Positions 1 through 53,149 of a DNA stretch of 53,322 bases are shown piece after piece; position 1 is the stretch's first letter; each line of letters starts with the position of its first letter. A program made the position numbers and the translations under genes. Source of the DNA: a virus (lineage: Duplodnaviria > Caudoviricetes); the IMG/VR virus record IMGVR_UViG_3300047187_000003, positions 1 through 53,322 of that record, one strand, 5' to 3'. The notes beneath the pieces were generated by a model. That model was not told the DNA's origin, searched no databases, and saw only the letters and a program-made list of their open reading frames with translations.

Positions 1-128
1 CAGGCAATTATCACTTATAAACGTGGGTGTGAGTGCAAATGACCACAGCGGGGATCCACTGAGAACAGCTTTTCAGAAGACTAACCTTGCGATAACTCAA
101 GTGAATACCAATACAACGAACATTGCTT
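1..128. repeat. Terminal overlap, left copy (circular assembly junction)
   Basis: 3-128 is identical to 53197-53322; position 1 aligns to 53195 with one mismatch at position 2. Confidence 0.97.
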
Positions 129-766
129 TAAAATTAAGCAAGACAGATACGACTGCGATGTTGGGTCATTATGTAAGAACATCGGCAGGTATTGTTCAGG
201 CTAAAATAAGTCATTTGTCTGACTCCCTGCTTGCCAGATATACAAAGACTCAGGCGAATACAAAACTTAACCTGAAAGTAAATATTGTTGATACTGCTGC
301 AATGTTATCAAAATATGTCAGAACTGCTGGGTCAGAGAATTTATCCGATATTGCACCGCTTCTCGTTGATACTATCCCTCTTGTTACTTTCGGAGCAGGG
401 GCGGGATTAATAGCAGATACGGCACTCTTTAATAATGGAGTTCTGATAGGTTGTTTTTATAATGATGGTTCTGACACACTGGTCATCACTAAATTAATGG
501 GAATACTCAAAGAAGGAACAGGGACGGAGACAATAGCGGTTCAGATAAGCTGGCATTCTACTATGTTAAGTGGGTCGGCTGTCTCATTAAATAGTTCACC
601 CCTTGCAATAACTTCAATTACAACCGGAACGGCAGATGTTAGTTTTGCAAATGCAAAAATACCACCGAAGAAATTTGTTTGGGGCATTCTTTCCGGTGCA
701 AGTAAGGATAATAAGCCTACGTTTCTGAATGTTACTTTAAGTGGTTATAAAATTCCTACGTACTGA
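23..766 (+). CDS. 3' part of origin-spanning tail/appendage protein (true start 53142, about 272 aa) with signal peptide
   Basis: Joined across the overlap it reads MNKKILVLFFLLLSATTFGQLSLINVGVSANDHSGDPLRTAFQKTN. The INVG..ND..GD.LR..F.K.N motif resembles the T4 gp9/gp10-type N-terminus. Two internal LK....DT.AML..YVRT repeats. Confidence 0.7.
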   Translation: MGVSANDHSGDPLRTAFQKTNLAITQVNTNTTNIALKLSKTDTTAMLGHYVRTSAGIVQAKISHLSDSLLARYTKTQANTKLNLKVNIVDTAAMLSKYVRTAGSENLSDIAPLLVDTIPLVTFGAGAGLIADTALFNNGVLIGCFYNDGSDTLVITKLMGILKEGTGTETIAVQISWHSTMLSGSAVSLNSSPLAITSITTGTADVSFANAKIPPKKFVWGILSGASKDNKPTFLNVTLSGYKIPTY

Positions 767-1239
767 TGAAGAAGTTAGTAATATTTCTTTGGCTCATAGT
801 TGGCTCACTGCTCTGCGAGGGGCAGATGATAATTAAGGCTAATGCTAATTATGTGGCTCCGGTTGCGAGTGATCCTTATGGGCCGGAAATGATAACGTGT
901 AATGATTTTAGTTGTGCTACTAATTGGGCTGGGATAAGTGGTTGGGTAATTGGCAGTGGTGTTGCAACAAGCAATCATGCAGAATATCCAACAATGTTAA
1001 ATACTAATGCTCCATGTGTTTCAGGGCATATTTATCATTTTACATATAATATAACATCTTATACAGGAGGAATATTTTATGTAATATGCGAAGGAGGGGC
1101 GCGTGGAGAATTTAGAACAAGTGCAGGAACATTTACAGATGATATTATTGCAACGGGTTCAGGATGGGTTTATTGGGCAGGAGGAACAGAAGACGATACA
1201 TTTGTTATTGATAATGTTTCAATGAAGGAAATATTATGA
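766..1239 (+). CDS. Secreted beta-rich protein, possible carbohydrate-binding module
   Basis: Signal peptide MKKLVIFLWLIVGSLLCEG-Q; ends in IDNVSMKE, typical of jelly-roll/CBM-like domains. Confidence 0.55.
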   Translation: MKKLVIFLWLIVGSLLCEGQMIIKANANYVAPVASDPYGPEMITCNDFSCATNWAGISGWVIGSGVATSNHAEYPTMLNTNAPCVSGHIYHFTYNITSYTGGIFYVICEGGARGEFRTSAGTFTDDIIATGSGWVYWAGGTEDDTFVIDNVSMKEIL

Positions 1240-3245
1240 GAAAATTATTTATAATATTATTTCTTTTCATCGGTGTTGTTCAGGCACAGACAACCTATTA
1301 TATTGATCCTGCGGGTACAGATGGCGGAGGTCATACAGGATTAATTGCTGATCCTTGGGTGACTCTTTCTTATGCTTGTACTCAGGTTACAACATCTGGT
1401 GATATTATTCATGTAAATGCAGGGACTTATACTGAAACAGCAAATTGCAATGTCTCTGTTGGTGTAAGTATCGAAGGAGTTGGAGTTACTTCACATATAG
1501 ATTTTACTCATGCAGCAACGGATTATACAGATGCTTCAATCAGGCTTGTTTCGGGTTCAGAAGGAACGGACGGAAATCAGAGTATAAGTTATTTATATCT
1601 TGATGGAAATAGTCAGGCTTCTTATCATGGAGTACTTGTAAAATGCAGAAGTAATGTTTTAATACATCATTGTACTTTTATAAACTTCCGATACAATGCG
1701 GTTCATTTCAACGGTAAGTTGGCGGGTTATGTTACTGGCGTCCCTCCTGCATCAACATGGGCAACTGGTAATCAACTTTATAACTGTACAATTACAAATT
1801 GCTCAAATATTCTTTATAATTACAATGAAACAGGGCATGGTAATATCAGATTTACCGGACAATCAGGATTACTTATTCACGACAATACAATAACGCAAAC
1901 AGGAGCAGCAGCAAATTATAATGCAAATATTGTAGATGCTGTAGAAGGATGCAATAAAGGGTGTAAATATTATAATAACATTTCTTATAAACCTGATGTC
2001 ACTACAACCGATTGGAATTTTCACCTTGAGGAATGGTATATATATGGTGGTTATGAGGTTTACGGGAATGAATTTCATGGTGGAGAACAGGGTTTTGATG
2101 TCGGTGGTTGTGTAAAAGGAAGTTATTTATTTTCTGCAAAAATATATGATAATTTATTCCAGTTTAGTGCAAAAAGGTCTTTTGTTTCTCGTACCATATT
2201 AGCCATTAATCTTGAAAATGTTGCAACAGTAGGAACTTCATTGGGAGACGTAAAAGATGTTTCAATATATAATAATCATGTTCAAAATCTTCCCTATGGA
2301 ATAAATATGACTTCTATTGTTGGCACAACTGATTTTGAGAACATTGATATTCATTGCAATATTTTTGAAAACATGGGTTTTAATCCATCAGATTGGTGTT
2401 TTGTATTCAAGATTGAACCGCAAGGTGATATGACTAATGTTTATGTTTATAATAATGTTATTCATTCTTCTACAACGGGACAGTCTATGTGTTCATTTTA
2501 TTTCAATCCATCGGGTATTATCACTGATTTTTATGTAAAAAATAATATTATACTAAATGATAATGCGAGTATTGGGCCTATTTATGCAGAAGACTTCGCA
2601 GGTACATTTACAAATCTTCACTGGAACTACAATGATTTTTATAATAATGGAGTTAATCTTATTTATTATGCTGGAGCAAAAAGAATTATTAATTTTCTAA
2701 ATACAAATAATATAAATGGTGATCCTTTATTTGTAGGCGGTTCTCCTTATGATTTTAATTTACAGGCAGGAAGTCCTGCTATCACAGCCGGAATAGGTGT
2801 AGGACTCACAACTGACTATGCAGGTAACGCATGGGCAACAACGCCCTCAATAGGTGCTTATGAATACGACAGTGACCCTCCTGATCCTCCCGGACTTCCT
2901 GAAGTCGAAACAGGTGCAGTAATTTACACCGCAGTAACAGCTAATGTAAGTTATGAAGTAACTTCCAACGGGGGAGGGACTCTTACAAATCGTGGAGTAT
3001 GCTATTCACTTTCTACTAATCCTACAACAAGTGATAGAAAAACTGTTTACACATCATCTTTAGGCTCGTTTACAGATGTTTTAAGAGGACTTCATGGCGG
3101 GGTGACGTATCATGCCAGAGCGTACACGATAAACGAAAGCGGTACTTCCTATGGGGCTGACATTTCGTTTACAACGCTTGCTCAGTCTATTATTAAAAAT
3201 AGTACAAAAACTTTAAGATTAACGAAGACTGTAATAATAAGATGA
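1236..3245 (+). CDS. Secreted right-handed beta-helix (pectin lyase-like) protein with C-terminal FN3-like domain; candidate depolymerase/adhesin
   Basis: Signal peptide MRKLFIILFLFIGVVQA-Q; TYYIDPAG..., GDIIHVNAGTY, Asn-rich repeats, DF.LQ.GSPAI..G...SIGAYE segment, Pro linker, RGVCYS...TYHARAY..N..GTSYG FN3-like motif. Confidence 0.7.
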   Translation: MRKLFIILFLFIGVVQAQTTYYIDPAGTDGGGHTGLIADPWVTLSYACTQVTTSGDIIHVNAGTYTETANCNVSVGVSIEGVGVTSHIDFTHAATDYTDASIRLVSGSEGTDGNQSISYLYLDGNSQASYHGVLVKCRSNVLIHHCTFINFRYNAVHFNGKLAGYVTGVPPASTWATGNQLYNCTITNCSNILYNYNETGHGNIRFTGQSGLLIHDNTITQTGAAANYNANIVDAVEGCNKGCKYYNNISYKPDVTTTDWNFHLEEWYIYGGYEVYGNEFHGGEQGFDVGGCVKGSYLFSAKIYDNLFQFSAKRSFVSRTILAINLENVATVGTSLGDVKDVSIYNNHVQNLPYGINMTSIVGTTDFENIDIHCNIFENMGFNPSDWCFVFKIEPQGDMTNVYVYNNVIHSSTTGQSMCSFYFNPSGIITDFYVKNNIILNDNASIGPIYAEDFAGTFTNLHWNYNDFYNNGVNLIYYAGAKRIINFLNTNNINGDPLFVGGSPYDFNLQAGSPAITAGIGVGLTTDYAGNAWATTPSIGAYEYDSDPPDPPGLPEVETGAVIYTAVTANVSYEVTSNGGGTLTNRGVCYSLSTNPTTSDRKTVYTSSLGSFTDVLRGLHGGVTYHARAYTINESGTSYGADISFTTLAQSIIKNSTKTLRLTKTVIIR

Positions 3246-3526
3246 TACTGGCCTTTAAAATAGCAATTATAATCACTGTCTTTGTTAATCTCTGTGAACC
3301 GGGGATGATATTCTCGTTTTATGGCAAGTTAATTGACAGATTACCCGGCTGGCTTTATAATCCATTGGGTGGATGTGTAAAATGCACTACCGGACAGGCG
3401 TGTTTCTGGGGTTATATCATTGCTTATTTTCATTCGTATAATTTATTTGAACATATATTATTTATCTCATCAGGAATTATTCTCTCATTAATTATAGATA
3501 AGTTATGGAATCTTTGCGAGACGTAG
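3242..3526 (+). CDS. Small membrane protein with CxxC motif
   Basis: Hydrophobic segments; PLGGCVKCTTGQ. Confidence 0.6.
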   Translation: MILAFKIAIIITVFVNLCEPGMIFSFYGKLIDRLPGWLYNPLGGCVKCTTGQACFWGYIIAYFHSYNLFEHILFISSGIILSLIIDKLWNLCET

Positions 3527-3993
3527 ATTTTTCTAAGAAGTTTTTTGAATGTCAAGGCAGAAAGTTTTTTGTCCGTGATACGCTTTCTTTTGTCCGTTAC
3601 CGGGAGTTACAGAAGATAAATTTAGAGTTTGGCTATTCAGCATCATTTCAAGATACTTTTAAACATATCAGGGAGGCGTGGGATTTCCTTAATCAGACAA
3701 AGTTAGGCGAGGCCGCCGTGGTGCTTCATAACGTGATGTTTGGTTTGGTTAATCTTGAGGAAAAAGATGATCCTGCACTTCGCATATGTGCATTGTTTAT
3801 TGATGAAGAAGGGGAAGACCCGACAGTTTATGATGAGGGGAAGATGAGAGAGAAGATTGAGTGTTGGGGGAAAGAATTGTCGGTGACCCCTTTTTTTCAA
3901 TTGGCCTCCGATCTGGTCACAGATTGGATAAGTGCCTTTCAGATCGTTACCCAAAATGGTTTAAAGAAGGAGGGCGAAAAACCTACTACATAA
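3505..3993 (+). CDS. Putative tail assembly chaperone
   Basis: Directly upstream of the tape measure gene, with an overlapping -1 frame ORF. Confidence 0.55.
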   Translation: MESLRDVDFSKKFFECQGRKFFVRDTLSFVRYRELQKINLEFGYSASFQDTFKHIREAWDFLNQTKLGEAAVVLHNVMFGLVNLEEKDDPALRICALFIDEEGEDPTVYDEGKMREKIECWGKELSVTPFFQLASDLVTDWISAFQIVTQNGLKKEGEKPTT

Positions 3994-4136
3994 AAAAAGA
4001 AATTGATGAGATAGATAAATACTGGAATGATTTATTATACAATGTTTGTAAAGGTAATGCACAAGAAATGATGCAATTAAAGAAATTTGACATACTTGAG
4101 TTTTTTGATTACGTTAATAAGAAAAGAGAAGAATAA
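3960..4136 (+). CDS. Tail assembly chaperone -1 frameshift extension
   Basis: In-phase slippery heptamer T TTA AAG at 3960-3966; the -1 frame is open to 4136 and abuts the tape measure ATG. Confidence 0.55.
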   Translation, partial: FKEGGRKTYYIKKEIDEIDKYWNDLLYNVCKGNAQEMMQLKKFDILEFFDYVNKKREE

Positions 4137-6010
4137 TGGGTGCAGAAGTTACACTTGTCCTTAAAGCAGACAATACAGATATTATTAGGAAACTTACTGA
4201 AACCCAAAAAGCCCAGGATAAACTTTTTGAAGGATATACTAAAGGCTATAAGGAAAAGAAAGGACTCATTCAGCAAGAACAGGAAGAACTTGAGAAGTTA
4301 TTAAGGTGGAGATTAAAAACAGAAGACCCGGACATGGTCACCAAATATAACAGGGCTATTGATGACCAGGTTAAAAAACTCAATGAACTTGAAAATGCAG
4401 GGCGCAATGTAGCTCAATCCGGGGAGTCAGCAACTAAATCTTTGGGTAAATGGGCTTTAGGATTTGCTTCTGTTGCTACTGCTGTAAATCTTTTAAAGAA
4501 TGCTTTTAAACAAACTGAAGCCGGTCTTAGAACGTTTAATGCTATTGGGGCTATTACAAAACAAATACTTTATGATCTTGTTACAGCCGGGAAGATAGAA
4601 ATTTCTCATATAGCACTTTCAATAAAAGCTAATAAAGAGGCCGAAAAAGTAAGAGTTGAACAAAGAAAAGGTATAGTTGAAATTGCTAAAATACAAACAA
4701 TATTCAATAAACTTTATTTTGAAGCATCAAATCAGACTTTAGATGCTGCAGAAAAAACTAATATTTTAAATAAAGCTCTGATTGCACATCAGGCTCTTAT
4801 GGATAAAAAGATAGATAATGCCAAAAAAGAACTTGAAATAATAAATTGGGGAATAACAGCTCGTCCCGAAGAAACAACATTATTAGATGCACAAGCTCAA
4901 AAACTCGCTGAAATAGAAACACTTGAGGGTGAAAGATATACAGAGACAAAGAGACTTGAGCAAATGAGAACGGGAATCATAAAAGATGAAACAGAAAAAC
5001 AAACTCAAATACGAGAAGCTGCAATAAAACAAGAAATAAAAGACCAGATAGATGGTATTAATAATTTCATGTCATTGCGCAAACAAAGAGAAAAAGCTGA
5101 CGAGATAACAAGAGATAAAGTAAGGGAAAAAGCAACAAAAAAATATTTGGGATTACTTGGACGAGTCCAGTTTATGACTGTTGTATCCGAAATGATTATT
5201 AAAGAAGAGGCTGAGGAGTCCGATAATAAAATAACTGAAATTCATAAGAAAGCTATTGAAGATCAGAAGGAGGCCGATGAAGACTTATATAATCACAAGC
5301 GGGATTTAATGCAGAACGCTATTGGTTTGGGTGCTCAATTGTTTAATCATCAATTCGCAAATCTCGAATTAAACTATAAGAAAGAAATTGCAGCCGCCGG
5401 AGAAAATGCAAAATTAAAAACTGAGATAGACGAGAGATATACTAAAAAACGCAATGACCTTGCACGTAAAGCTTCAATAGCTGAAAAGATTGCTGGTTTA
5501 TTTAGTGTTGGTATAGATACTGCAAAAGGTGTAGCCAATGCCGCTTCTAAAGTGCTTACAATACCTTTGATTCCCTGGATTATTGCTAATGGGATTGTTC
5601 AGGCTGCTATAATTGCCGCAACACCAGTCCCTCAATATGCCAAAGGCGGTTGGACAGGCAGAGGGAGAAATAGAGACAGTTCAGGCGAGCGGGTTGCTGG
5701 TATTGTACATGAAGAAGAGTTTGTTGTTCGTAGGGGACCGGCATTAAAATTCCGGGAAGTGCTTGACGCTATAAATAAAAATGATCGCAGTCTTATAATA
5801 AACCGATTTAATAAACTATCCCCTGAATTATTTGGTGGGACAACAATCAATAAAGTAATTGTCGAGAACGAGGGACCAAATAAAAGACTTGATAAAGTAA
5901 ACAGACAACTTGAATTATTAAATAAACGCAGTACATCAGAGGAAGTTATTGAGATGGACGGAGCAACGATAATCCGCAAGGGCAGTTCAACACGTGTGGT
6001 AAGAAAATGA
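4136..6010 (+). CDS. Tape measure protein
   Basis: Long helical Ala/Glu/Lys-rich protein; C-terminal YAKGGWTG...AGIVHEEEFVV motif; position in tail module. Confidence 0.75.
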   Translation: MGAEVTLVLKADNTDIIRKLTETQKAQDKLFEGYTKGYKEKKGLIQQEQEELEKLLRWRLKTEDPDMVTKYNRAIDDQVKKLNELENAGRNVAQSGESATKSLGKWALGFASVATAVNLLKNAFKQTEAGLRTFNAIGAITKQILYDLVTAGKIEISHIALSIKANKEAEKVRVEQRKGIVEIAKIQTIFNKLYFEASNQTLDAAEKTNILNKALIAHQALMDKKIDNAKKELEIINWGITARPEETTLLDAQAQKLAEIETLEGERYTETKRLEQMRTGIIKDETEKQTQIREAAIKQEIKDQIDGINNFMSLRKQREKADEITRDKVREKATKKYLGLLGRVQFMTVVSEMIIKEEAEESDNKITEIHKKAIEDQKEADEDLYNHKRDLMQNAIGLGAQLFNHQFANLELNYKKEIAAAGENAKLKTEIDERYTKKRNDLARKASIAEKIAGLFSVGIDTAKGVANAASKVLTIPLIPWIIANGIVQAAIIAATPVPQYAKGGWTGRGRNRDSSGERVAGIVHEEEFVVRRGPALKFREVLDAINKNDRSLIINRFNKLSPELFGGTTINKVIVENEGPNKRLDKVNRQLELLNKRSTSEEVIEMDGATIIRKGSSTRVVRK

Positions 6011-7812
6011 GTATTATCCCATATAGCACAGGAAATATACCTACTTATAGGTTTTATCTTACTTATTCAACAATAACGTATGAAGTATTCCCTTTGAAGT
6101 TTCTTGAGACAACACTTACAGATGAAGTCGAAACAGGACAGATATTTTACAGGCGCAAATTTTCCGGTGAGTTACTTTTTGGCACTAACTCTAAAGTATT
6201 GGATGTGTCGGGTGTAGAACAGAACCGGCAGGATGACTTTACTTTACTCTGGCTCATCGAAGGCATAGACCCGTGTACAAGATTAGATTTAACGATTACA
6301 AAGACTGTTTCGGGAGTAATAGATACTTACTGGGAAGGATATTTCTCAACCTCGGACGGTAAATTCGATATTGATAAATGTACTTTTATTGTCACCCCCT
6401 TTCTGGATGATGTTTATAAAACCATTTTAGATAAAGCTGACCAGGAGTTTAACCTTCTTAATATACCGGGACATATTTCGACTACAGCTTATATTATGGG
6501 GCTTTACAATACTGTTATAACTAATAACTGGCTCCTGATGGTTGTTGCACAGTATATTCTTAATGTGATCCTTCCCACAGCGACAATATCAAGTCATTTC
6601 TTTGAAGATGCTACTAATTATGTACAGGACCCTTTAGGTACTGGAGTTAATTATCTTAGATATACTACAATAGCTTCAAAAGCCGAAGTAGTGGCTACTA
6701 CCTACGACCCTACTATTTCATGTATGATAAGTTGGAATAGTTTTATGGATATTCTCCGTGATATGTTTCAGGTTTACTGGAATTACGATCCTGTGACTAA
6801 CGTGGTTAATATAGAACATATAAGTTGGTTTACTAAAGCTGCCGGGCTGGATCTTCGTACTCAGACCTCTTGTGTAGCGATGAATAAATACGACTACAAT
6901 AAGCCGGATATGCCTAAATATGAGAAATTCTTTTTCGTTGAGGCTGATGATCCTAATTTCGTTGGGACTCCGATCTATTATGACTCTCCATGTGTCAACC
7001 AGGATAGCAGCAGTAATGTCGTAGAAACGAAAGTAAACGTAACAACCGATATAGAATATGTCATAAATAATCCTGATGCTATTGCTGATGATGGGTTTAT
7101 CATTCTGGCTAATTACTTCGATGGTGCTGATTATTATGTCCGTAGTGGTATGGGAGATTTCTATAATTCTTTTAAGCTCAATATGCATCTCTCGTGGGCT
7201 AATCTTGAGAACTGCTATTTTCGCCATAACAGGGTTCTTTTAGAGGGTTATATGAACCAAGACCCTAATGATGTTACACCTACATTAACTACTTTCTGGA
7301 ATGCCCGTGAGACTAAAATTCAAAATCTCAATGCTATTCTTTGCACTGATTATGACCCTGATGATAGTATCACTACCGAGTTAGGTGAGACATATTTTGC
7401 AAGGGAGAAAGCTACTGTTAAGCGAGGGTCATTAAAACCTTCCGGGGAAATTAATTTTGATCTTCTTTATGGTGTCCCTGATAATACCAATACCGGAGTT
7501 ATAGAGTATAAGGCTATTTATGTTCATCAGGAAGCCTCATGTTTGGGGTTTAGTTTTACTCTTAGTGAAATTTCGGCAGTAGATATAGATATAACATTTC
7601 ATGTTAAAGTTTATGATAGTATCGGGGGTTTAGATTGTGAAGCTGATGAGACGTTGACTATAACCGCAGGATTGATGTCTGTTGCTTTAAATACTGTGAA
7701 TTGTCCGCCGCCTATTCCTGCGGGTGGATGCGTGACTGTTACCATGCCTACAAAAGATGATTCCGGTATATGGTATATTTTTTATGATGATGATTCAACT
7801 TGTGAATGCTGA
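6007..7812 (+). CDS. Minor tail/baseplate protein
   Basis: Follows tape measure; beta-rich and acidic; Cys-rich C-terminus. Confidence 0.5.
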   Translation: MSIIPYSTGNIPTYRFYLTYSTITYEVFPLKFLETTLTDEVETGQIFYRRKFSGELLFGTNSKVLDVSGVEQNRQDDFTLLWLIEGIDPCTRLDLTITKTVSGVIDTYWEGYFSTSDGKFDIDKCTFIVTPFLDDVYKTILDKADQEFNLLNIPGHISTTAYIMGLYNTVITNNWLLMVVAQYILNVILPTATISSHFFEDATNYVQDPLGTGVNYLRYTTIASKAEVVATTYDPTISCMISWNSFMDILRDMFQVYWNYDPVTNVVNIEHISWFTKAAGLDLRTQTSCVAMNKYDYNKPDMPKYEKFFFVEADDPNFVGTPIYYDSPCVNQDSSSNVVETKVNVTTDIEYVINNPDAIADDGFIILANYFDGADYYVRSGMGDFYNSFKLNMHLSWANLENCYFRHNRVLLEGYMNQDPNDVTPTLTTFWNARETKIQNLNAILCTDYDPDDSITTELGETYFAREKATVKRGSLKPSGEINFDLLYGVPDNTNTGVIEYKAIYVHQEASCLGFSFTLSEISAVDIDITFHVKVYDSIGGLDCEADETLTITAGLMSVALNTVNCPPPIPAGGCVTVTMPTKDDSGIWYIFYDDDSTCEC

Positions 7813-9347
7813 TGAAAACAATAAACACTTCTTTGCCTATCTATGATCTGCTTTCAAAACAATGTTTTGAACGTGGTAAGGATGGCGGATTCGATAAGCC
7901 TGTTCCTATTTTGACACCCAGACACCGGTTACCTTCGTTTCAGTGGAACGCAGAGGCAGATAACATGGGGACTGTTACAAAAGTAGAATTAAGGAATAAT
8001 ACTTATACCGGAGCAGATAAAGGAACTACCGTAGTAAATAGTATTGGAAGTGGTTATTCTACATTTACCGTATCAGGTAATGCAATAACATCTGCAATTC
8101 AGATAGCTGCAGTATCATCTGTGGCTATGATTCGTCCAATAATGCCAGGGATAAAAGGAATGCCTGTAACTATTGAATTTACATTAACTTTAACTTCAGG
8201 GCAAGCACCTACATTTTCAATTATGGGTGGTCCTACCGGAGAATTATTAACTTCTGCCGGGCAATTAGCTACTGCCGGAGCAAATAAATTATATTTTATT
8301 CCGAACAGAGATTGTACATTTACTTATGTAATAATTGAAAATACAAATGTTTGCAACTGGTCATGTACATCTATTATTATTAAACAAGGAGATATAACGA
8401 GTCATTTTCCTACACTCCCTTTTGCAACTGTCCTTGCAGTAGATACTTATTATTCTTATAACGGTGATACGCTTAATTATCTTTTACCTGAAGGTATTTA
8501 TTATTTAAAAATAACTACTTCTAACGGGTATGTACTTTATTCCGATTGGTTTAAAATAAATTGTGTTTACCCAAATCTTATAACAACATGGACAAATCCT
8601 TCTTATGAAACATTTCAAATATTCGGTACGAGTATATTTCTTGCAATAAATAGTGCCGGAGATGGTTTGTCAACTGCCGGACCGTTCTCTGTTATTAAAG
8701 GCGAAACAATAACTGTTATTTTTAATTATACAGAAAATTCAGGCACTACACCTGATATGTATATTATAAATGATGGTTGGACTCTTAGTGATGGTGCTGC
8801 AATTACCGCCGGGTTAAATGTATTGACATTAAACCCGACATGGACAGGGAATGCTTATATAGCGTTTTCTAATTCTGCTTCTAATGTTAATTTCTCCACA
8901 ACTGAAGTTTTAGTTATCCGTTCTTATTCAGATAAATATCTTACAATAAATTTCCATAATGATTGTGATTTAGGGGATATTCTTTACCACGAAGGATTTA
9001 CCCAGACTGTTTGGTTTGAATCCGAGACAATGGAGCCTTCATTTCCCTTAGAAGAAGAAGGTGTCAAAGACGGTAATGCACAGTTTGTTCGTTCATTCGG
9101 GAGACAGGTTAAGAAATATATAGCCCGGACAAAAGAGATGCCTGATTTTATAGTTGAACTCTTTAATAGGATGAAACTGCATGACACTGTCGAACTTATT
9201 GATTTAGTAGGTAATGAAAATGATGTTTATAATCTTGAGGTCGAACATGAGTGGCTTGAGAATGACAAGTATTATGCACAGATAAATTTGACTTTTGATT
9301 ATAATGAAGCCTTCGTGATTGGCGGATGTTGTAACAATTTAACATAA
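7812..9347 (+). CDS. Minor tail protein with inserted beta-sandwich domains
   Basis: Tail module context; ATG at 7812 coupled to upstream stop; ends GGCCNNLT. Confidence 0.5.
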   Translation: MKTINTSLPIYDLLSKQCFERGKDGGFDKPVPILTPRHRLPSFQWNAEADNMGTVTKVELRNNTYTGADKGTTVVNSIGSGYSTFTVSGNAITSAIQIAAVSSVAMIRPIMPGIKGMPVTIEFTLTLTSGQAPTFSIMGGPTGELLTSAGQLATAGANKLYFIPNRDCTFTYVIIENTNVCNWSCTSIIIKQGDITSHFPTLPFATVLAVDTYYSYNGDTLNYLLPEGIYYLKITTSNGYVLYSDWFKINCVYPNLITTWTNPSYETFQIFGTSIFLAINSAGDGLSTAGPFSVIKGETITVIFNYTENSGTTPDMYIINDGWTLSDGAAITAGLNVLTLNPTWTGNAYIAFSNSASNVNFSTTEVLVIRSYSDKYLTINFHNDCDLGDILYHEGFTQTVWFESETMEPSFPLEEEGVKDGNAQFVRSFGRQVKKYIARTKEMPDFIVELFNRMKLHDTVELIDLVGNENDVYNLEVEHEWLENDKYYAQINLTFDYNEAFVIGGCCNNLT

Positions 9348-9406
9348 CCTTTAACAGATTCGATATTTAAGTATTTATTTTTATTCATTAATTTAATTTT
9401 AAAAAT

Positions 9407-9997
9407 ATGAGCATCATCAAATTGCCCGACTGTCCAGTGGATTGCACGGGGGTATTAGAATCAGTGAGTTTCTCGGAGTGCGCCCCGGAGGTGCATTTTG
9501 GAGAGATAGCGAAGTTGTATTTGTGGGTTGATTCGGCTACTCCGCCTTTCGTCGTAGTCGGGAATGTTGCTGCATCGCAAGCACAATATGATTCAGCAGC
9601 TTATTGGGCTACACATCTGAACGATTCAGGTGTGGCCGTTGATGATATACGTGAGTTTACTGTCATCGGCGAGATGCCGGAACCGGAACAGACTGAAACG
9701 CCTATTTCCGGGGATCGTACCGTGGTAGGGTATAAGAAATTTATTCTTAATCTTGAGATTGACGAGACAAACGAGACTAACTATAATTTCCTGTTAGCTT
9801 CGGAGTGTAATGGCAAGTATAAGGCTAATTTTGAGACTGCTGACGGGATCCTTTATGGTGGGTATCTTGGCCTGGATGTCTCGGTTAAGATGAATCAGGT
9901 CATCCCGAAAGAACGTACCGGTGTTGTTAAGATCATGGTCAAAGTAACCTGGTCGTCAAAGAATCATCCTTTTAGACAAATTTCACCCGTAGCATAA
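9407..9997 (+). CDS. Putative major tail tube protein
   Basis: 196 aa, beta-rich, IGEMPEPEQTE loop, AT-rich leader; assignment by size and context. Confidence 0.45.
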   Translation: MSIIKLPDCPVDCTGVLESVSFSECAPEVHFGEIAKLYLWVDSATPPFVVVGNVAASQAQYDSAAYWATHLNDSGVAVDDIREFTVIGEMPEPEQTETPISGDRTVVGYKKFILNLEIDETNETNYNFLLASECNGKYKANFETADGILYGGYLGLDVSVKMNQVIPKERTGVVKIMVKVTWSSKNHPFRQISPVA

Positions 9998-10791
9998 TGG
10001 CAACAGATTATACAACAGCATGCGGAGATGTAGCTTTGAGCTTTATCCAGATGTTAGCTTCGTCTATCGTAGGTTATCACGATATTGCGGGTGTTTTACA
10101 TTACAGGATTAACGGCTTGGAGGTTTCTGCTAACTGTACGGGTTTAAGTGATTTTCTCGAATGTGACGTATCACATATAGACCCAGAGAGACAGTTGGTT
10201 GAGAATACTTTTGCCCTTGATGATTGCGGTCGTCTGGCGTGGAAGGTATTTAGTAATACTGATAACGATTGGACTGATTATTCAGAGTGCGGTGAAATAC
10301 CACAGTCATTTATAAGAATGCTTTATCGTTGTATTGTTGAGTATTCCAATGCTTATAAGATAAATGCTGTCATAGATACAGGGGCTTGTACATCAATTAA
10401 GCCAGTATTTAGCTGCTCGCCTTATTCACTTACGGATGAAGTAGCAGAAACGGCTTTAATGAATGCTTTTGCAGTAGATGATTGCGATAGACTTTTAATC
10501 AAGTTTTTCGCCAATTCGAGTACAATGACCGATTATCATACCGAATGTAATGATTTGCCTCAGTCTCTTTATCAGTTACTTGCAAGATGTCTTGTAACAT
10601 ATAGCGGTCATGTTTATATAAATACTGCTACTGTTACAGGATATTGTGATGATTTGCATGATTTCTGGACTTGTGCCAATAATCATATCGACCCTGAAAG
10701 GGCTTTGGTAGAGAATGTTTTTGCCACTGATTCATGTGGTAATCTGGCTCTGAAGATTTTTAATAACGCAGGTGATTCAAGAGAACAATGA
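9997..10791 (+). CDS. Cys-rich protein of three roughly 85-aa repeats, probably virion-associated
   Basis: TDY..C...SF..ML...C...C...FA.D.C..L..K.F.N occurs three times. Confidence 0.7.
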   Translation: MATDYTTACGDVALSFIQMLASSIVGYHDIAGVLHYRINGLEVSANCTGLSDFLECDVSHIDPERQLVENTFALDDCGRLAWKVFSNTDNDWTDYSECGEIPQSFIRMLYRCIVEYSNAYKINAVIDTGACTSIKPVFSCSPYSLTDEVAETALMNAFAVDDCDRLLIKFFANSSTMTDYHTECNDLPQSLYQLLARCLVTYSGHVYINTATVTGYCDDLHDFWTCANNHIDPERALVENVFATDSCGNLALKIFNNAGDSREQ

Positions 10792-11165
10792 GCGCAATAC
10801 TAAATACTCCATTTAATAAACCGGAATGTGGCGATTTGTTCAATTTAGGACAGATCACTATGTTAAAAGATGTTCTCGGTGGTTTGATTAATTTTCAAGC
10901 CGTAGGCACTGATCCCGATCATTCTGGGCCGATCACGCTGGCAGGTAATGATTATGTTCCTGCTGCGGGTCATGTAAATCCTGATGGTACGTTTTTTATC
11001 ATCCCTGAGACCGATGCTGCTACTTATATTGTTGAGATGGCTGATGGCACTCAGTTTACTATCACGGGTGCGCAGTCAACGGCTTATCTTGGTCAACCGA
11101 TACCGTATCGTCTTTTAAGGGTTATTGCGGCTGGTACGACTGGATCGTTTTCAGTAGTTTATTAA
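10788..11165 (+). CDS. Hypothetical virion protein
   Basis: Coupled ORF in structural block; ends RVIAAGTTGS. Confidence 0.55.
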   Translation: MSAILNTPFNKPECGDLFNLGQITMLKDVLGGLINFQAVGTDPDHSGPITLAGNDYVPAAGHVNPDGTFFIIPETDAATYIVEMADGTQFTITGAQSTAYLGQPIPYRLLRVIAAGTTGSFSVVY

Positions 11166-11175
11166 GTTATGAAAC

Positions 11176-11227
11176 AGGTCAAATTTCAACGGATATTCCT
11201 GTCACGTTGGTTTGACCTTTTATTTTG
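11176..11227 (+). terminator. Putative intrinsic terminator
   Basis: AGGTCAAA/TTTGACCT and CAACG/CGTTG stems followed by TTTATTTT. Confidence 0.5.
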
Positions 11228-11343
11228 ATGATATGCAAATAGCAATCGGAAATAGAATAGGAAACATACCGATATAACTAAAAAGATTATCGGAGAGAAA
11301 GCAAGCAGATACATATTAATAAACGATTAAAAACAGCGTAATC

Positions 11344-12564
11344 ATGCCGGGCATATTTATAGGTAATAGTGTAATTAAAGCAAAATCAAATAACTGGGCT
11401 TCGTACTGGGCGACACATTATTTAACAGGACTTGCAGTTACAACAACTTCTGATACTACACAAACCATAACTGCAACTATTAATGGTATAGGTGCAGACG
11501 GTGTTTCATGGGAATATTCAACTGATTTAATTAATTGGACTGTTAAGGGGACTTCTATTTTGGGTTCATTCCCTGCAACTGGATTAACAGGGAGTACATT
11601 ATATTTTTGGCGAGCAAGACTATATAAAGGGAGTAATTTTGGTGATTATTCAAACATTGATTTAAACGTAACCGAAGCAACTCAAATCAGACATCAGACA
11701 GGGGGAGTTAATGATGTTGTGGCATGGTATGATTCACAAGATTTAACTACAATAACAAAGGATGTAAATGATTTTATATCACGTCGAAATGATAAACTTG
11801 GTAGCGGACATGACCTAATTCAGGCAGATGGGGCAAAGCAATTCCATTGGAGTGCCGATGGTACTTTGGCTGATGGGATTAATGATTTTATGAAAACTGC
11901 TGGTTTTACGTTTGGACAACCAGAATTTATATTCATGGTTATCAAACAAAAAACATTTCATAATAATTGTTATTTATTTGACGGAAATGCAGCAGATTCA
12001 GGAATAATATATCAACATTCCATATCTCCAATAATTACTCCTTATGTAGGCGTGGATTTAGGTAATTCATATGATTTAATAATTGATAAAATAGGAATTA
12101 TAAGATTGCTGTTTAATGGTGCTTCAAGTAAATTAATTATAAATGACAATACACCCGTAACAGGCAGTGTAGGTGCTGGAGACATGGGAGGGTTTACGCT
12201 TGGTTCAAATGGATCGGGAACTAATTATTTTGCAAATATTGAAGATTCTGAGATAATATTAAATAGGATATCTCTTAACTCTGGTGATGAAACGGCAATT
12301 TATAATTATCTAAAATCAAAATACTCATTACAAAAGAAAATAATAACATTCAATAATACAGGCAATGAGGCACTGACCGATTATATGGCTGAAATAAATT
12401 TAACAGTTGCTCCTTTTGCAACCTTATTTTATTTTTTAGCCGGGAGTACATTACTTGATTATTATATTGATTCTTTCGATTTAAGGACAGGGGCAGTTAA
12501 GATATTTGTTAAGATTAGTATTCCTGCTGATAGTATTAAAATAGTTAATCTTTATATCAGTTAA
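11344..12564 (+). CDS. Tail fibre/receptor-binding protein (FN3-like, LamG-like, DUF2341-like C-terminus)
   Basis: TGLTGSTLYFWRAR FN3 motif; AWYDSQD...IYNYLKSKY LamG-like domain; N.G..LTDY...LDYYI...KIFVKI segment. Confidence 0.55.
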   Translation: MPGIFIGNSVIKAKSNNWASYWATHYLTGLAVTTTSDTTQTITATINGIGADGVSWEYSTDLINWTVKGTSILGSFPATGLTGSTLYFWRARLYKGSNFGDYSNIDLNVTEATQIRHQTGGVNDVVAWYDSQDLTTITKDVNDFISRRNDKLGSGHDLIQADGAKQFHWSADGTLADGINDFMKTAGFTFGQPEFIFMVIKQKTFHNNCYLFDGNAADSGIIYQHSISPIITPYVGVDLGNSYDLIIDKIGIIRLLFNGASSKLIINDNTPVTGSVGAGDMGGFTLGSNGSGTNYFANIEDSEIILNRISLNSGDETAIYNYLKSKYSLQKKIITFNNTGNEALTDYMAEINLTVAPFATLFYFLAGSTLLDYYIDSFDLRTGAVKIFVKISIPADSIKIVNLYIS

Positions 12565-12565
12565 T

Positions 12566-14321: not shown

Positions 14322-14597
14322 ATGGAAGAGCATATCTGCGAACATGAAACCGATTTCGGTATTCTATTTACCAAAATTGATTATATGACAAAAGCATTAG
14401 ATAGTCAGGTTATTGCTATGGATGCTTTAAAGATAGCGGTTGATGCAGCGGTCAAGTATCAGATTTCAATGAAGTCTATTCGAGAAAGTGCAGAGAGGGA
14501 AAGAATGCCGCACCTTTATAAAGCATCAATTATAATCTCTGTGATTATCGGATTCTCTGCAATACTAACAGCATTAATAATTGAATTTCATAAATAA
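14322..14597 (+). CDS. Membrane protein of lysis module (holin-like)
   Basis: Coiled N-terminus plus one C-terminal TM helix, directly before the endolysin. Confidence 0.45.
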   Translation: MEEHICEHETDFGILFTKIDYMTKALDSQVIAMDALKIAVDAAVKYQISMKSIRESAERERMPHLYKASIIISVIIGFSAILTALIIEFHK

Positions 14598-15019
14598 TGT
14601 CCCAATTCAGCAATATATCCAAAGAAAGGTTAAAAACGTGCCACAGCGATTTACAGGTGCTTTTTAACAGGGTTATTGAGGAGATAGACATAACTATCGT
14701 TTGTGGTCACAGGAACGAGGAGGAGCAAAATAAAGCCTATCAGCAGGGCAATTCAAAACTTCGATGGTCTGACTCGAAACATAATACCGTTCCGTCCCTG
14801 GCTGTTGATGTTGTTTCCTACGAATCCGGTCATCTGGACTGGGGTGTAACACAATCGGCTTATCTGGCAGGTAGGATTATAGGTATAGCTTCAGAGTTAT
14901 TCAGGGAAGGTAAGATGAAACACAGGATCCGACCCGGAGTAGATTGGGATAACGATAATGATGTTGATGACACTAAGTTTTTTGACGCACCTCATTTTGA
15001 GATAATACCTAATTTATGA
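14597..15019 (+). CDS. Endolysin, M15-family (L-Ala-D-Glu type) peptidase
   Basis: GHR..EEQ, SKHN...SLAVD, DAPHFE zinc-peptidase motifs. Confidence 0.88.
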   Translation: MSQFSNISKERLKTCHSDLQVLFNRVIEEIDITIVCGHRNEEEQNKAYQQGNSKLRWSDSKHNTVPSLAVDVVSYESGHLDWGVTQSAYLAGRIIGIASELFREGKMKHRIRPGVDWDNDNDVDDTKFFDAPHFEIIPNL

Positions 15020-32245: not shown

Positions 32246-32256
32246 AAAACTAAATT

Positions 32257-51879: not shown

Positions 51880-52463
51880 ACTGGACTGAGTTGGACAAAC
51901 GAACCGGAGGGGTTATAAAAGACCTTCAGGGCGGGATAATGGGTAATATCATGCTTCGTCTGGCTACTAATGCACTTACGTTGCTTCGGGCAAGAGTTCA
52001 GGAGACAGGCAAGGATGCTAAAGGGACTAAATACAGACCTTATTCTACTAAAGCAATGTTAATAGGTTGCAGCTCATTTGTTCAAAAAAACGCTTGTAAT
52101 TCAGTATTTGGCAGTAAAGAAAAAAGAAAGAATTTGGAATGGCGGACTATCAAAGGTCACCGGCTGGCTATTCTCCCCGGAGGTTATAAACAACTTCGTA
52201 ACTTACAGGGGAGACAAACAGAACATGTTGATTTTATGATGACAGGCAGGATGTGGAATGATATTTCTATCGTGAGCAAAGGAACGGATCACGAGAAAGG
52301 GATAGCAGTAATAGGGGCAAAAACTGATGATGAAAAAAAGAAACTCGCCGGCAATACAAAGAGCCGGGGTGATATTCTGGACTTATCACAATCAGAAGTA
52401 GATACCCTTATGAAGAATTACAATTTAGATGTTTTACAGATATTCAGGAATAACGGATTATGA
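51876..52463 (+). CDS. Neck/tail completion (virion morphogenesis) protein
   Basis: G.D..G....PYS...VDF..TGRM motif; basic. Confidence 0.55.
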   Translation: MNWTELDKRTGGVIKDLQGGIMGNIMLRLATNALTLLRARVQETGKDAKGTKYRPYSTKAMLIGCSSFVQKNACNSVFGSKEKRKNLEWRTIKGHRLAILPGGYKQLRNLQGRQTEHVDFMMTGRMWNDISIVSKGTDHEKGIAVIGAKTDDEKKKLAGNTKSRGDILDLSQSEVDTLMKNYNLDVLQIFRNNGL

Positions 52464-53149
52464 ACCAAGCGATAGCTTCTATAATAAAAGGTCATATTGA
52501 GGACTTGGATTTTGTCGATAAGATCGCAGGGTTAGTTTCAGCGGTTACTTTTGAACAGAAAGACAAAGATAATGCTGTCAAAGACGTTACCTTCCCGATA
52601 GCATGTTGCGTGAGTCCCGCAGACTGCAAAGAAGGGGCTTACAATGATCTTATGCCTAACTCTGCATATAAGACAGTTATTTATTTTGAAGATGGTGGGA
52701 TTACTTTTGACAAATACGAATCAAATTGGAAATATTATAAAAGCACTCTTCGCCTGGTTTGCTGGATTAATATTGAAAAACTAACTGAGTCAGGAGATTG
52801 TAAGTCAGAAGACCCATGTACTTATGCTGCTCATATAGTTGCAGAGATAATAAGGGCATTACCGGCTTTCCCTGAGAATCATTATCCTTTCGATAAAATT
52901 TACTCAGAGGTAACTAACCAGATAGTTAGGAGTCCTTCAATTTTCGGTTCATATACTTATGATGAGAAACATTCTCAATATCTTATGGCTCCTTATGATT
53001 ATTTCGCTTTAACAATAGAGACTACTTTCGCAGTATGTCTCAAAAACAGGGTGGTTTATGATAGTTCCTGTGGAGGTACTACGGATGTGCAGGCAGATTC
53101 AGATTTAATAACAGCAGACTCAGACTTAATAACAGCAGATTATGAATAA
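52460..53149 (+). CDS. Tail terminator-like protein (putative)
   Basis: Position; Cys-rich; ends in an ADSDLIT tandem repeat. Confidence 0.45.
   Translation: MNQAIASIIKGHIEDLDFVDKIAGLVSAVTFEQKDKDNAVKDVTFPIACCVSPADCKEGAYNDLMPNSAYKTVIYFEDGGITFDKYESNWKYYKSTLRLVCWINIEKLTESGDCKSEDPCTYAAHIVAEIIRALPAFPENHYPFDKIYSEVTNQIVRSPSIFGSYTYDEKHSQYLMAPYDYFALTIETTFAVCLKNRVVYDSSCGGTTDVQADSDLITADSDLITADYE

Follow-up and report, generated by a model that had tools for sequence, protein, structure and literature searches.

Three consecutive tail-module genes of an uncultured Bacteroidota phage encode predicted Sec-exported fibre, lectin and glycanase-type proteins

Why should three neighbouring proteins of a phage tail module begin with host-type signal peptides, when tailed particles are built in the cytoplasm? 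The question is raised by the genome of an uncultured Bacteroidota phage, analysed as a single stretch of 53,322 nt (the window) to which all coordinates refer. The genes starting at 53142, 766 and 1236 are designated P1, P2 and P3. We tentatively favour, at a probability of roughly 0.45, the reading that they constitute a mobile 'fibre, lectin, glycanase' cassette carried by phages of Bacteroidota, which would be routed through Sec and join the tail at lysis. A literature search found no published description of a leader-bearing tail-module cassette of this kind.

The P1 gene runs across the ends of the window. Positions 3-128 are identical to 53197-53322, and this terminal overlap of 126 nt, which extends to 128 nt when one mismatch at position 2 is allowed, bears out the circle closure assumed in the initial annotation. 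The mismatch falls in the P1 codon preceding Gln, which reads Gly at the 3' end, where its context is complete, and Arg when read at the 5' end. Large ORFs are all on one strand. P1-P3 overlap their neighbours by 1-8 nt and thus lie inside a late operon, and their GC content (0.35-0.40) is within the range of the genome. The upstream 229-aa gene (52460..53149, +) extends 8 nt into P1 and belongs to PHROG 8145, of unknown function; it scored 0.84-0.85 in Atlas against Phage_tail_terminator and Mu_Gp37 clusters, below the tool's bar of 0.9. On the other side, a 94-aa hydrophobic membrane protein (3242..3526, +), whose start overlaps the P3 stop, had no family match in domain and PHROG profile searches and no relative in the fetched loci. 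A 162-aa gene and a 624-aa tape measure protein follow (3505..6010, +), the latter called from PHROG 18891 'tail length tape measure' (E 1.4e-5) and PHROG 33615 (E 1.5e-13). The earlier placement of P1-P3 between a tail terminator and chaperone and tape measure genes therefore stands for the tape measure; for the chaperone only its position speaks, and the terminator is a weak lead. Further downstream, the tail and baseplate genes in 6007-14110 form a full set, without leaders. The searches revealed no major tail protein in the window. The genome additionally has a large cluster of sugar-nucleotide and glycosyltransferase genes.

The N-termini are exactly as first described: MNKKILVLFFLLLSATTFG-Q, MKKLVIFLWLIVGSLLCEG-Q and MRKLFIILFLFIGVVQA-Q. 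The predicted signal peptides comprise 19 aa in P1 (53142..53198, +; SPase I cut predicted before Gln at 53199), 19 aa in P2 (766..822, +; Gln at 823) and 17 aa in P3 (1236..1286, +; Gln at 1287). Each has two basic residues in its n-region and a hydrophobic core of 9-13 residues, with T/G (P1), C/G (P2) and V/A (P3) at -3/-1 and Gln at +1 in all three. The leaders were called by sequence rules, from which the cleavage sites are predicted. Leader architecture and Gln at +1 are shared with Bacteroidota Sec/SPase I Q-rule substrates, as far as the accessible text of two reports goes (PMC5837995, in which Gln at +1 is established for SPase I substrates, and PMC10653852). Those substrates are cellular envelope proteins, whereas the P1 knob family described below occurs almost only in phage contigs. 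The proposed Sec/SPase I pattern fits all three leaders and is kept in relatives. Export of P1-P3 via Sec is, on this pattern, very probable, and the proteins probably mature outside the cytoplasm. A reading of the sequences found no lipobox in P1-P3, and domain profile scans found no T9SS sorting domain in them; lacking the latter, they are predicted to be periplasmic. Among 81 ORFs from a greedy caller, an MKK-plus-hydrophobic start occurs elsewhere only at 25198 and 38329, and simulation put the chance of three such genes in a row at 0.004 (4 marked) to 0.009 (5 marked).

A check suggested at the outset, whether homologues keep the leader, came out in its favour. A leader is present in 62 of 70 P1 relatives, in 98 of 119 P3 relatives and in the closest four of 19 small P2 relatives (P0194, P0203, P0217 and P0238, ending in Gln); the other 15 lack it. 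Among the 57 Sec-type leaders of P1 relatives, 56 show a small residue and Gln after the core, and three of the eight 'leaderless' P1 relatives have visibly 5'-truncated leaders. It is very unlikely that these hydrophobic N-termini go unused for export, as wrong starts or as uncleaved assembly tags on ordinary tail proteins assembled in the cytoplasm. P2 has a Met two residues past the predicted cut that could be a second start, but it is missing in two of the four closest relatives; near the cut sites of P1 and P3 there is no other start to use, and a cytoplasmic tag would have no reason to obey a Gln +1 rule, as 56 of 57 Sec-type P1 relatives do.

Phage relatives at a greater distance from P1, P2 and P3 lack a leader. 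Because leaderless relatives start exactly at the predicted cleavage site, the leaders behave as a discrete add-on, apparently to virion-type proteins. Leaderless P3 relatives begin M-A-T-Y-Y at the predicted cut site, and in the comparison of loci L020 and L019 (55% identity over 550 aa) the leaderless relative begins exactly there. P3-type helices elsewhere either lack a leader or follow a fused domain whose homologue in the window is the C-terminal part of a 513-aa tail protein (7806..9347, +); the last 138 aa of this protein are the leaderless module that stands directly N-terminal to the helix in other phages (residues 2-139 of P0124 align with its residues 376-512 at 37% identity, E 3e-31). 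Relocation of neighbouring proteins appears to be coordinated: across 20 viral loci the helix gene has a leader in 15 and none in 5, and the gene immediately upstream bears a leader in 12/15 of the former versus 0/5 of the latter (Fisher p = 0.004; p = 0.011 once near-duplicate loci were dropped). The window holds no leaderless paralogue of P1, P2 or P3.

Mature P1 has 253 aa plus stop (5..766, +), with 53199-53322 repeating 5-128 in the terminal overlap. It is predicted to trimerize in parallel, with an anchor motif at the N-terminus followed by a coiled-coil shaft and a jelly-roll knob. The AlphaFold model has a pLDDT of 79.4. The homotrimer scored 0.85 against 0.00 for the best control, with at least 82% of contacts agreeing between runs and a partner pLDDT of at least 82; the mark for this score, reached in the tool's calibration by 20 of 30 solved pairs and 1 of 23 single chains, holds only roughly here. 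The anchor motif (mature residues 1-37; 5..115, +) is present in a single copy in the window and matches positions 4-54 of the PHROG 8859 profile. Its residues 3-37 are 55-62% identical to residues about 4-38, at the extreme N-terminus, of a leaderless Rhizobium T4-like phage protein, a 115-aa 'putative baseplate structural protein' with 24 records. The T4 gp9/gp10-like motif claimed initially thus holds only in part, as a match to a Rhizobium T4-like baseplate N-terminus; a search of the T4 record returned 0 matches at E <= 10. No protein emerged as a docking partner of the anchor. The leaderless Rhizobium phage protein also has a Gln where the alignment places the +1 Gln of P1, which may thus have been partly inherited with the domain. 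The helical shaft (mature residues 18-116; 56..352, +) has two D-T-x-A-M-L-x-x-Y repeats and in-register trimer contacts, with modelled helices at residues 19-35, 46-56, 60-68, 73-85 and 94-104. The C-terminal knob (mature residues 120-253; 362..763, +), modelled at pLDDT >90, is the family's conserved domain, with 50 invariant columns in alignment A2. Foldseek matched it to Agrobacterium phage 7-7-1 tail fibres (E 3.6e-4) and, as top BFVD match, at E 4.6e-14; VIA Z values of 7.4-8.3 indicate a generic jelly roll. The knob family is essentially phage-only, with one locus, on a 5-kb MAG contig, among 185,579 species (one genome per species).

P2 appears to be a small viral CBM-like domain and is a putative sugar-binding protein. 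Its beta-sandwich (residues 30-157, plus stop; 853..1239, +) is supported by phmmer, which returned 1492 representatives at E <= 1e-3, single or in up to 8 repeats in large proteins, and by Atlas, whose look-alikes are viral clusters of 136-185 aa, one with CBM_4_9 on 13% of members. P3 (model pLDDT 89.9, pTM 0.81) is a glycanase-type protein and a putative sugar-cutting enzyme. Its right-handed beta-helix (residues 20-545; 1293..2870, +), of glycoside hydrolase or lyase type, resembled GH136 lacto-N-biosidases (E 9e-8), HK620 and Sf6 tailspikes and PL6 lyases in Foldseek. The FN3/Ig-like domain that follows (2901..3173, +), with strands at residues 556-646 in the model, has a weak titin FN3 match (E 0.0028), and tblastn matches of P3 to uncultured phages are confined to it; residues 653-669 are a low-confidence basic tail before the stop at 3243-3245. 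The P3 family appears mainly to be a bacterial secreted one: the T9SS sorting domain PF18962 occurs in 30 of the 120 relatives listed, on contigs up to 731 kb. Bacterial secreted beta-helix proteins that bear T9SS C-terminal or choice-of-anchor Q domains match the helix at 36-53% identity, and P3 shares the choice-of-anchor Q domain (NCBIfam choice_anch_Q, residues 501-545, 30 bits vs cutoff 25). Unlike these relatives, P3 has no T9SS sorting domain and sits in a phage tail operon.

Our preferred reading builds on data for the leaders (their features, their conservation and their behaviour as an add-on), for the folds and for the trimer prediction. We infer from them translocation, cleavage, periplasmic residence and any joining of the virion. 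P1-P3 would be synthesized late, within the tail operon, each with its signal peptide, cross the inner membrane and be cut by signal peptidase I before Gln, which a host cyclase would convert to pyroglutamate. They would then fold in the periplasm, P1 as a parallel trimer, P2 as a sugar-binding beta-sandwich and P3 as a beta-helix enzyme cutting polysaccharide. Because none has an outer-membrane sorting signal, they would be held there until the envelope gives way to holin, endolysin and spanin-like proteins. At lysis P1 would dock through its free N-terminal anchor onto the tail built in the cytoplasm, either by itself or together with P2 and P3, so that host-recognition gear would be added in a second compartment. 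For attachment of P1 to the virion after export we put the chances at about even. The literature search found no published description of post-lysis attachment as a natural route.

Two cultured Cellulophaga baltica phages offer an analogy. Like P1-P3, their cassettes consist of late genes in a row, three to five in number, whose products start with MKK-type leaders that end in Gln; they include gp091-gp094 of phi10:1 (KC821618) and gp085-gp087 of phi18:3 (KC821620). GenBank annotation, our sole source for their virion status, notes these 7 proteins as 'structural protein, experimental MS/MS proteomics', which lends indirect, analogical support to virion joining of P1-P3. The other MS/MS proteins inspected were leaderless, nine in phi18:3 (gp099 to gp123) and four in phi10:1 (gp083, 087, 088 and 090). 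MS/MS of purified particles can also detect co-purifying envelope proteins. The phi10:1 genome (53.7 kb) has a tape measure, and the last gene of its cassette encodes a sugar-cutting enzyme with a leader, the pectate lyase gp095, which has no MS/MS note and so counts against virion joining. The Cellulophaga cassettes lie after the baseplate, at the edge of the tail module directly before the lysis genes, whereas P1-P3 are upstream of chaperone and tape measure. By sequence they appear analogous and non-homologous to P1-P3: BLAST found no detectable similarity (E above 0.01), the best HMM match (E 0.0017) covered the shaft region only, and no Pfam domain was found in 8 Cellulophaga cassette proteins.

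The missing note on gp095 fits a different fate, possible but doubtful, in which P1-P3 are exported and never enter the particle, acting in the infected-cell envelope as receptor-destroying, receptor-masking or release factors. P3 would degrade capsule, EPS or O-glycan during periplasmic-side assembly or at lysis, and P1 and P2 would bind the same glycan, keeping progeny off debris and blocking superinfection, much as phage T5 lipoprotein Llp acts (a precedent taken from the accessible parts of PMC9586334 and bioRxiv 10.64898/2026.03.26.714494). Consistent with this, the fibre slot of other phages holds proteins with a canonical lipobox (L-A-G-C in L002, L-S-G-C in L005, L-S-S-C in L027) or an N-terminal membrane anchor (L031), which would stay membrane-tethered and argue against virion joining. 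The cassette abuts lysis genes in L002, phi10:1 and phi18:3; the particle may not need P1-P3, given the leaderless tail and baseplate set in the window; and the bacterial secreted proteins that dominate the P3 family, the choice-of-anchor Q match and WceF, an enzyme that bacteria export and whose fold is that of a tailspike (accessible text of PMC7949094), point the same way. Against it, the seven leader-bearing Cellulophaga proteins are annotated as structural, mature P1 retains the motif of leaderless baseplate proteins, and its knob family is confined to phages but for the one species-level locus. A soluble copy of a receptor-binding protein would also predict a virion-borne knob or helix paralogue, and the window has none.

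The fibre/lectin/enzyme triad recurs beside tail or lysis genes (L002, L003/L004, L005 and L007), and with tail genes across unrelated phage lineages. Such recurrence speaks against host-surface or lysogenic-conversion effectors (morons) that remodel the surface for the host or prophage, unrelated to adsorption or release. Morons in tail regions typically carry signal peptides, so the leaders fit, as does the sugar-nucleotide and glycosyltransferase cluster. P1-P3 have neither a promoter gap of their own nor a compositional break, and they overlap their neighbours; a Pfam scan of 64 ORFs revealed neither an integrase nor a repressor, and the large ORFs share one strand. With no T9SS C-terminal domain or lipobox for reaching the surface, the host-surface role first offered as an alternative becomes improbable.

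Sec routing to the tail would set P1-P3 apart from classical fibres and tailspikes (HK620, Sf6, Agrobacterium phage 7-7-1 and the Rhizobium T4-like baseplate proteins). These share the trimer, N-terminal anchor, distal jelly-roll knob, beta-helix enzyme and modular domain shuffling, but their assembly is cytoplasmic and they lack signal peptides, whereas P1-P3 all carry a conserved leader. T5 Llp, signal-peptide or SAR endolysins, T4 RI and PBSX XepA are, like P1-P3 as proposed, phage-encoded, Sec-exported and envelope-acting, and the Llp gene adjoins the receptor-binding gene. The XepA fold aligned with the P1 knob over 109 residues (Z 8.1, rmsd 3.2 A), not above unrelated rows. Llp-type exported proteins are small and single-purpose, whereas here a whole virion-type fibre, lectin and enzyme set bears export signals.

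The window, 53,322 bases long, represents an entire virus record of IMG/VR, and its ends are repeated: positions 3-128 equal 53197-53322. At position 2 there is a mismatch (1-2 against 53195-53196, A vs G), probably an artefact of the assembly end, which would turn the -1 residue of the P1 cut site from Gly into Arg. Closure of the circle fuses a 60-codon open frame (53142-53321) with the frame entering at position 2, giving P1, a predicted trimeric-fibre protein, which is followed by the small, carbohydrate-binding-module-like P2 (gene start 766) and the beta-helix, glycanase-type P3 (gene start 1236). The initial annotation had quoted these gene starts as MNKKILVLFFLLLSATTFG-Q, MKKLVIFLWLIVGSLLCEG-Q and MRKLFIILFLFIGVVQA-Q and had reported signal peptides followed by Gln on three consecutive tail-module genes, an observation that we confirm. 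In each leader, two basic residues precede a hydrophobic core of 9-13 residues; the residues at -3 and -1 are small, and Gln stands at +1. The n, h and c regions are NKK / ILVLFFLLL / T-F-G in P1, KK / LVIFLWLIVGSLL / C-E-G in P2 and RK / LFIILFLFIGVV / V-Q-A in P3. Leaders were called by our own rule rather than by SignalP; it asks for a basic n-region, an h-region 7-15 residues long, and residues that are small and uncharged at both -3 and -1. Under this rule all three proteins have the n-region, h-region and -3/-1 residues of Sec/SPase I substrates as well as the Gln of the Q-rule. No lipobox ([LVI][ASTVI][GAS]C) was found at the leader end of P1 or P3, nor does P2 have one, as its Cys17 follows Leu-Leu. 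The three genes share 1 to 8 bases with their neighbours. A moron recognizable by composition was considered and rejected, the GC content of the P1-P3 genes being no different from that of the rest of the genome. Among 81 ORFs from a greedy caller, only two others have an MKK-plus-hydrophobic start, and three such leader genes would fall consecutively in 0.4-0.9% of placements by chance. Those two others, at 25198-25596 (132 aa) and 38329-38586 (85 aa), encode small proteins outside the tail module. Judged from these sequences, P1-P3 are very likely exported. In Bacteroidota the Gln +1 rule is well documented, as is its cyclase (PMC5837995, available part), and the rule is described as raising the stability of extracytoplasmic proteins (PMC10653852, available part). 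The +1 Gln of P1 is aligned with a Gln in a leaderless Rhizobium-phage protein and may thus be partly inherited with the domain.

Retention of the leader by homologues, which the initial annotation had named as a check, was borne out for 62 of 70 relatives of P1, 98 of 119 relatives of P3 and 4 of 19 small relatives of P2, these four being the closest ones. The P1 count comprises 57 Sec-type leaders and five flagged as lipobox; in 56 of the 57, a small residue and Gln follow the core. Two of the eight leaderless P1 relatives have no Met start and three have visibly truncated leaders. Gln ends 26 of the 98 leaders of P3 relatives. For P2, where the best 150 of 1492 representatives were considered, only 2 of 131 large proteins have a leader, and all four leaders of the small ones end in Gln. 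Each of the three proteins thus has close relatives with a leader and distant relatives without one. The leader behaves as a discrete add-on: across 550 residues, the leader-bearing helix of one fetched locus (L020) has 55% identity to the leaderless helix of another (L019), and the latter begins at the predicted cut site of the former. In the P3 relative P0124 and three more listed relatives, a 139-residue module stands in place of the leader and has 37% identity (E 3e-31) to the C-terminus of the 513-aa tail protein of the window (7806..9347, + strand). In those phages, the P3-type enzyme has evidently been attached to the tail.

The presence of leaders also co-varies between neighbouring genes. 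In a profile scan, P3 relatives turned up at 51 viral loci, and the 24 with near full-length matches were examined; a single ORF covered the match in 20, 15 with a leader and 5 without. The gene directly upstream bears a leader for 12 of the 15 leader-bearing helices vs none of the five leaderless ones (Fisher p 0.004; 0.011 without two near-duplicate loci), and the module thus seems to change compartment as a whole. The P1 knob recurs in four further loci, always on a leader-bearing or lipobox protein. Among the loci fetched for relatives of P1-P3, L003/L004 have leaders on all of a 179-aa protein, a 1023-aa fibre, a 275-aa LamG-like protein and a 907-aa helix. In L005, the genes after a tape measure and a 1306-aa tail protein encode a lipobox fibre (637 aa), a P2-like protein (182 aa) and a helix that is at least 693 aa long; L007 has three consecutive leader-bearing proteins, and in L002 holin-like and amidase genes come after a leader-bearing helix and a lipobox fibre that has the P1 N-motif. 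When compared by tblastn with 50,697 phage records, the L003 fibre matched only a Vibrio/Xanthomonas beta-helix. A leaderless 406-aa protein of the window (11344-12564; PHROG 'virion structural protein') has a domain of about 200 residues in common with two leader-bearing proteins, namely the C-terminus of the L002 lipobox fibre (5557-7512; E 7e-8) and a 249-aa neighbour of the L007 fibre (1650-2399; E 1.6e-24), so that one module is found both with and without export signals. In L024 (2894-3160) and also in L023, the gene immediately upstream of a leader-bearing 546-aa fibre encodes a leaderless protein of 88 aa, most of which is the P1-type anchor motif, and the L024 cassette, as read from its genes, would be a mixture of leaderless and exported parts.

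The model of the mature part of P1 (window 5-766) has helices at residues 19-116 and a beta-sandwich knob at 124-250 with pLDDT above 90. P1 is predicted to form a parallel, in-register homotrimer (score 0.85 vs 0.00 for the best control; at least 82% of contacts are common to the runs, and partner pLDDT is 82 or higher). The mark used here is reached by 20 of 30 solved pairs and by 1 of 23 single chains and, with our own alignment, is rough for three copies. Foldseek matched the knob to the tail fibres of Agrobacterium phage 7-7-1 (9rkv; E 3.6e-4, TM 0.31) and, in BFVD, best to an uncharacterised Caudovirales protein (E 4.6e-14), and also to collagen-repeat and tail-fibre proteins. In the Foldseek-independent VIA search it scored Z 7.4-8.3, tying with many unrelated jelly rolls, and by that search the modelled knob is a generic jelly roll. 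By sequence, P1 had no meaningful match in the PDB. Mature residues 3-37 of P1 are 55-62% identical (E 8e-6 to 3e-4) to residues ~4-38 of a leaderless, 115-aa Rhizobium-phage protein that is a 'putative baseplate structural protein' by annotation only. This N-motif matched 24 records from phages of Rhizobium and allied genera, with T4-like Rhizobium phages at the top, and P1 accordingly has an N-terminal domain in common with annotated baseplate proteins. The initial annotation had called the motif T4 gp9/gp10-like: its occurrence in leaderless annotated baseplate proteins stands, but the first 112 mature residues gave no match at E <= 10 against the whole T4 record, a search for which a 35-residue motif is possibly too short; a resemblance to T4 itself is putative. 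A reading of the knob as a T9SS sorting domain was rejected, with no match in Pfam or NCBIfam. The knob was absent from the 50,697 deposited phage records (tblastn); its family is also nearly absent from bacterial genomes, where 185,579 species were covered and a single locus was seen, which lies on a MAG contig of 5 kb. Pfam gave no match for P1-P3 and nine neighbours, and P1 and P2 belong to PHROGs of unknown function only.

A word-indexed search found no relatives of P2, and an exhaustive phmmer search found 1492 representatives. The P2 domain (residues 30-157) is single in small proteins and repeated up to eight times in large ones. Its structural look-alikes in the Atlas are small viral proteins, one cluster of which has CBM_4_9 on 13% of its members (score 0.92, TM 0.63); P2 itself matched nothing in Pfam, the CBM_4_9 profile included, and by tblastn matched one Edwardsiella phage among the 50,697 phage records. 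P3 is modelled as a right-handed beta-helix with a C-terminal FN3-like domain (pLDDT 89.9). Its nearest solved folds by Foldseek (E 9e-8 to 2e-5) are GH136 lacto-N-biosidases, HK620/Sf6 tailspikes, PL6 lyases and PL9, with TM 0.2-0.4 and 10-13% identity; these matches gave no assignment to a family. P3 has a choice-of-anchor Q domain (30 bits vs a cutoff of 25), and its family has 539 matches at E <= 1e-3; PF13229, PF07602 and PF12708 occur among its relatives. By sequence, P3 had only a weak FN3 match in the PDB, P3 as a single query against viral contigs retrieved no match, and tblastn of P3 and its relative P0073 against the 50,697 phage records matched the FN3-like tail only. The helix family is large and mostly bacterial. 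Among 120 listed P3 relatives, 30 carry a T9SS sorting domain, on contigs of up to 731 kb.

No T9SS sorting domain (PF18962 / TIGR04183 type) was found in P1-P3 (Pfam E <= 0.01, NCBIfam E <= 1), and since they also have no lipobox, they would, from what is known of Bacteroidota secretion, stay periplasmic until lysis. The lysis genes of the window (14597-15982) encode an endolysin (PHROG 465, E 3.8e-27) and two membrane proteins. P1-P3 most likely form a module of fibre, lectin and glycanase that is exported and undergoes maturation in the periplasm, and we assign a probability of roughly one half to P1 docking on the tail at lysis. A less probable reading, still to be weighed seriously, is that P1-P3 work unattached in the envelope as factors for receptor destruction or release. 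The fibre-slot proteins of L002, L005 and L027 have a canonical lipobox and one in L031 has an N-terminal membrane anchor, with the P1-type anchor motif placed after the membrane signal in L027 and L031; such fibres would stay tethered to a membrane, which counts against attachment to the virion. So do the home of the P3 enzyme family among bacterial secreted proteins, the full run of leaderless tail and baseplate genes in the window, and the fact that no docking partner of P1 was found. Against free action in the envelope, the window has no leaderless paralogue of the knob, P2 or P3, the best hit being the P2 profile in the 513-aa tail protein at E 0.04; this is a poor fit to a model in which the cassette supplies a soluble copy of the virion's receptor-binding protein.

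Comparable cassettes occur in two cultured Cellulophaga baltica phages. In phi18:3 (KC821620), gp085, gp086 and gp087 are consecutive, have MKK-type leaders ending in Gln, and carry the GenBank note 'structural protein, annotation based on experimental MS/MS proteomics analysis'; the other nine MS/MS proteins in the stretch examined are leaderless, and lysis genes follow the cassette. In phi10:1 (KC821618; 53.7 kb, with a tape measure), gp091-gp094 have the same leader type and the same MS/MS note; the next gene is a leader-bearing pectate lyase without the note, followed by membrane proteins and an endolysin. These MS/MS annotations reportedly come from Holmfeldt et al. 2013. The cassette proteins of the two phages have no detectable sequence similarity to P1-P3, and Pfam matched none of the eight, so for a presence of P1-P3 on the particle they serve as an analogy and not as homologues. 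In phi46:3 (KC821622, 38-73 kb), from the family of phi18:3, none of nine annotated structural proteins has a leader (19 CDS checked), and the trait is therefore not shared by all members of that family.

In the textbook view, all parts of tailed-phage particles are made and assembled in the cytoplasm. A conserved and coordinated export signal on fibre-, lectin- and tailspike-type proteins conflicts with this view. We tentatively propose, at odds somewhat short of even, that tailed Bacteroidota phages build their particles in two compartments and that the P1-P3 cassette is one instance. Heads and tails would be assembled in the cytoplasm, and the receptor-binding fibres with their lectin and glycanase partners would pass through Sec into the periplasm. 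There the fibres and their partners would be capped with pyroglutamate, perhaps also acquiring disulfides or O-glycans of the host, and would dock onto the tail only once lysis merges the compartments. The conflict could be met in two ways: either assembly has a second compartment, in which the receptor-binding gear undergoes host-type maturation (pyroglutamate, perhaps glycans), or virion parts have been made into a family of exported accessory proteins that bind and destroy receptors. Either would affect host-range prediction and engineering for Bacteroidota phages, including those of gut and marine habitats, and how 'structural' proteins are called from genomes. Our literature search found no description of signal peptides on tailed-phage tail fibres or of exported or secreted fibres or tailspikes, and the available parts of PMC6199706, PMC5723332, PMC6116005 and PMC3556154 do not treat exported tail fibres or tailspikes. 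The target proteins of phage DGRs have no signal peptides according to the available part of PMC6199706. Leader-bearing structural proteins are visible in the GenBank records of cultured phages and, as far as we have seen, are uncommented in print. The proposed two-compartment route, which would be widespread, is described in no publication that we found.

The general O-glycosylation sequon of Bacteroidota is D-(S/T)-(A/I/L/V/M/T) (PMC8550257, available part). P1 has six vs 1.29 expected (p = 0.0015), the highest density in the window, and P2 and P3 have none. Sequons number 343 vs 86.7 expected in leader-bearing P1 relatives, which are not independent of one another, and 87 vs 236.6 expected in P3 relatives; 11 'leaderless' P1 relatives are equally sequon-rich. 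Three P1 sequons are invariant in the knob by descent, and five of the six have one of their D, S/T or third residues in the predicted trimer contact list, so that the P1 sequons may be structural. O-glycosylation as the reason for export was accordingly set aside and kept as a lead only, given the trimer-contact position of the P1 sequons and their absence from P2 and P3. The only other sequon-enriched protein of the window (3 vs 0.33 expected, p = 0.002) is a 193-aa protein at 15401-15982 that adjoins the endolysin, has an N-terminal membrane anchor and a weak DUF6549 match, and is possibly a spanin-like periplasmic protein.

The window also contains a large sugar-nucleotide/glycan cluster (27928-38082 and 45069-47201) with genes for an epimerase/dehydratase, methyltransferases, a GHMP kinase, a SIS isomerase, a transaldolase, a cytidylyltransferase, dehydrogenases, a formyltransferase, an FkbM methyltransferase, a GT11-type (fucosyltransferase-family) protein and GT2 proteins; three more glycosyltransferases lie between the portal and head-morphogenesis genes. 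Loci for protein O-glycosylation in Bacteroidota typically include a fucosyltransferase family (PMC8698959, available part), and a link between the cluster and the sequon-rich exported fibre is conceivable. The large terminase (39036-41492; 818 aa) contains an intein (Intein_splicing E 1.4e-9, residues 507-802), and a glycosyltransferase of L003 is apparently split by an intein-like insert. The portal (41646-43403) had no tblastn match in the 50,697 deposited phage records, and no major tail protein of the window could be named from Pfam/PHROG searches; the phage is far from all cultured phages. The early/replication region encodes an HNH endonuclease (19920-20405), an MT-A70 DNA methyltransferase (21482-22453) and a protein with a DnaA C-terminal HTH (23779-24126).
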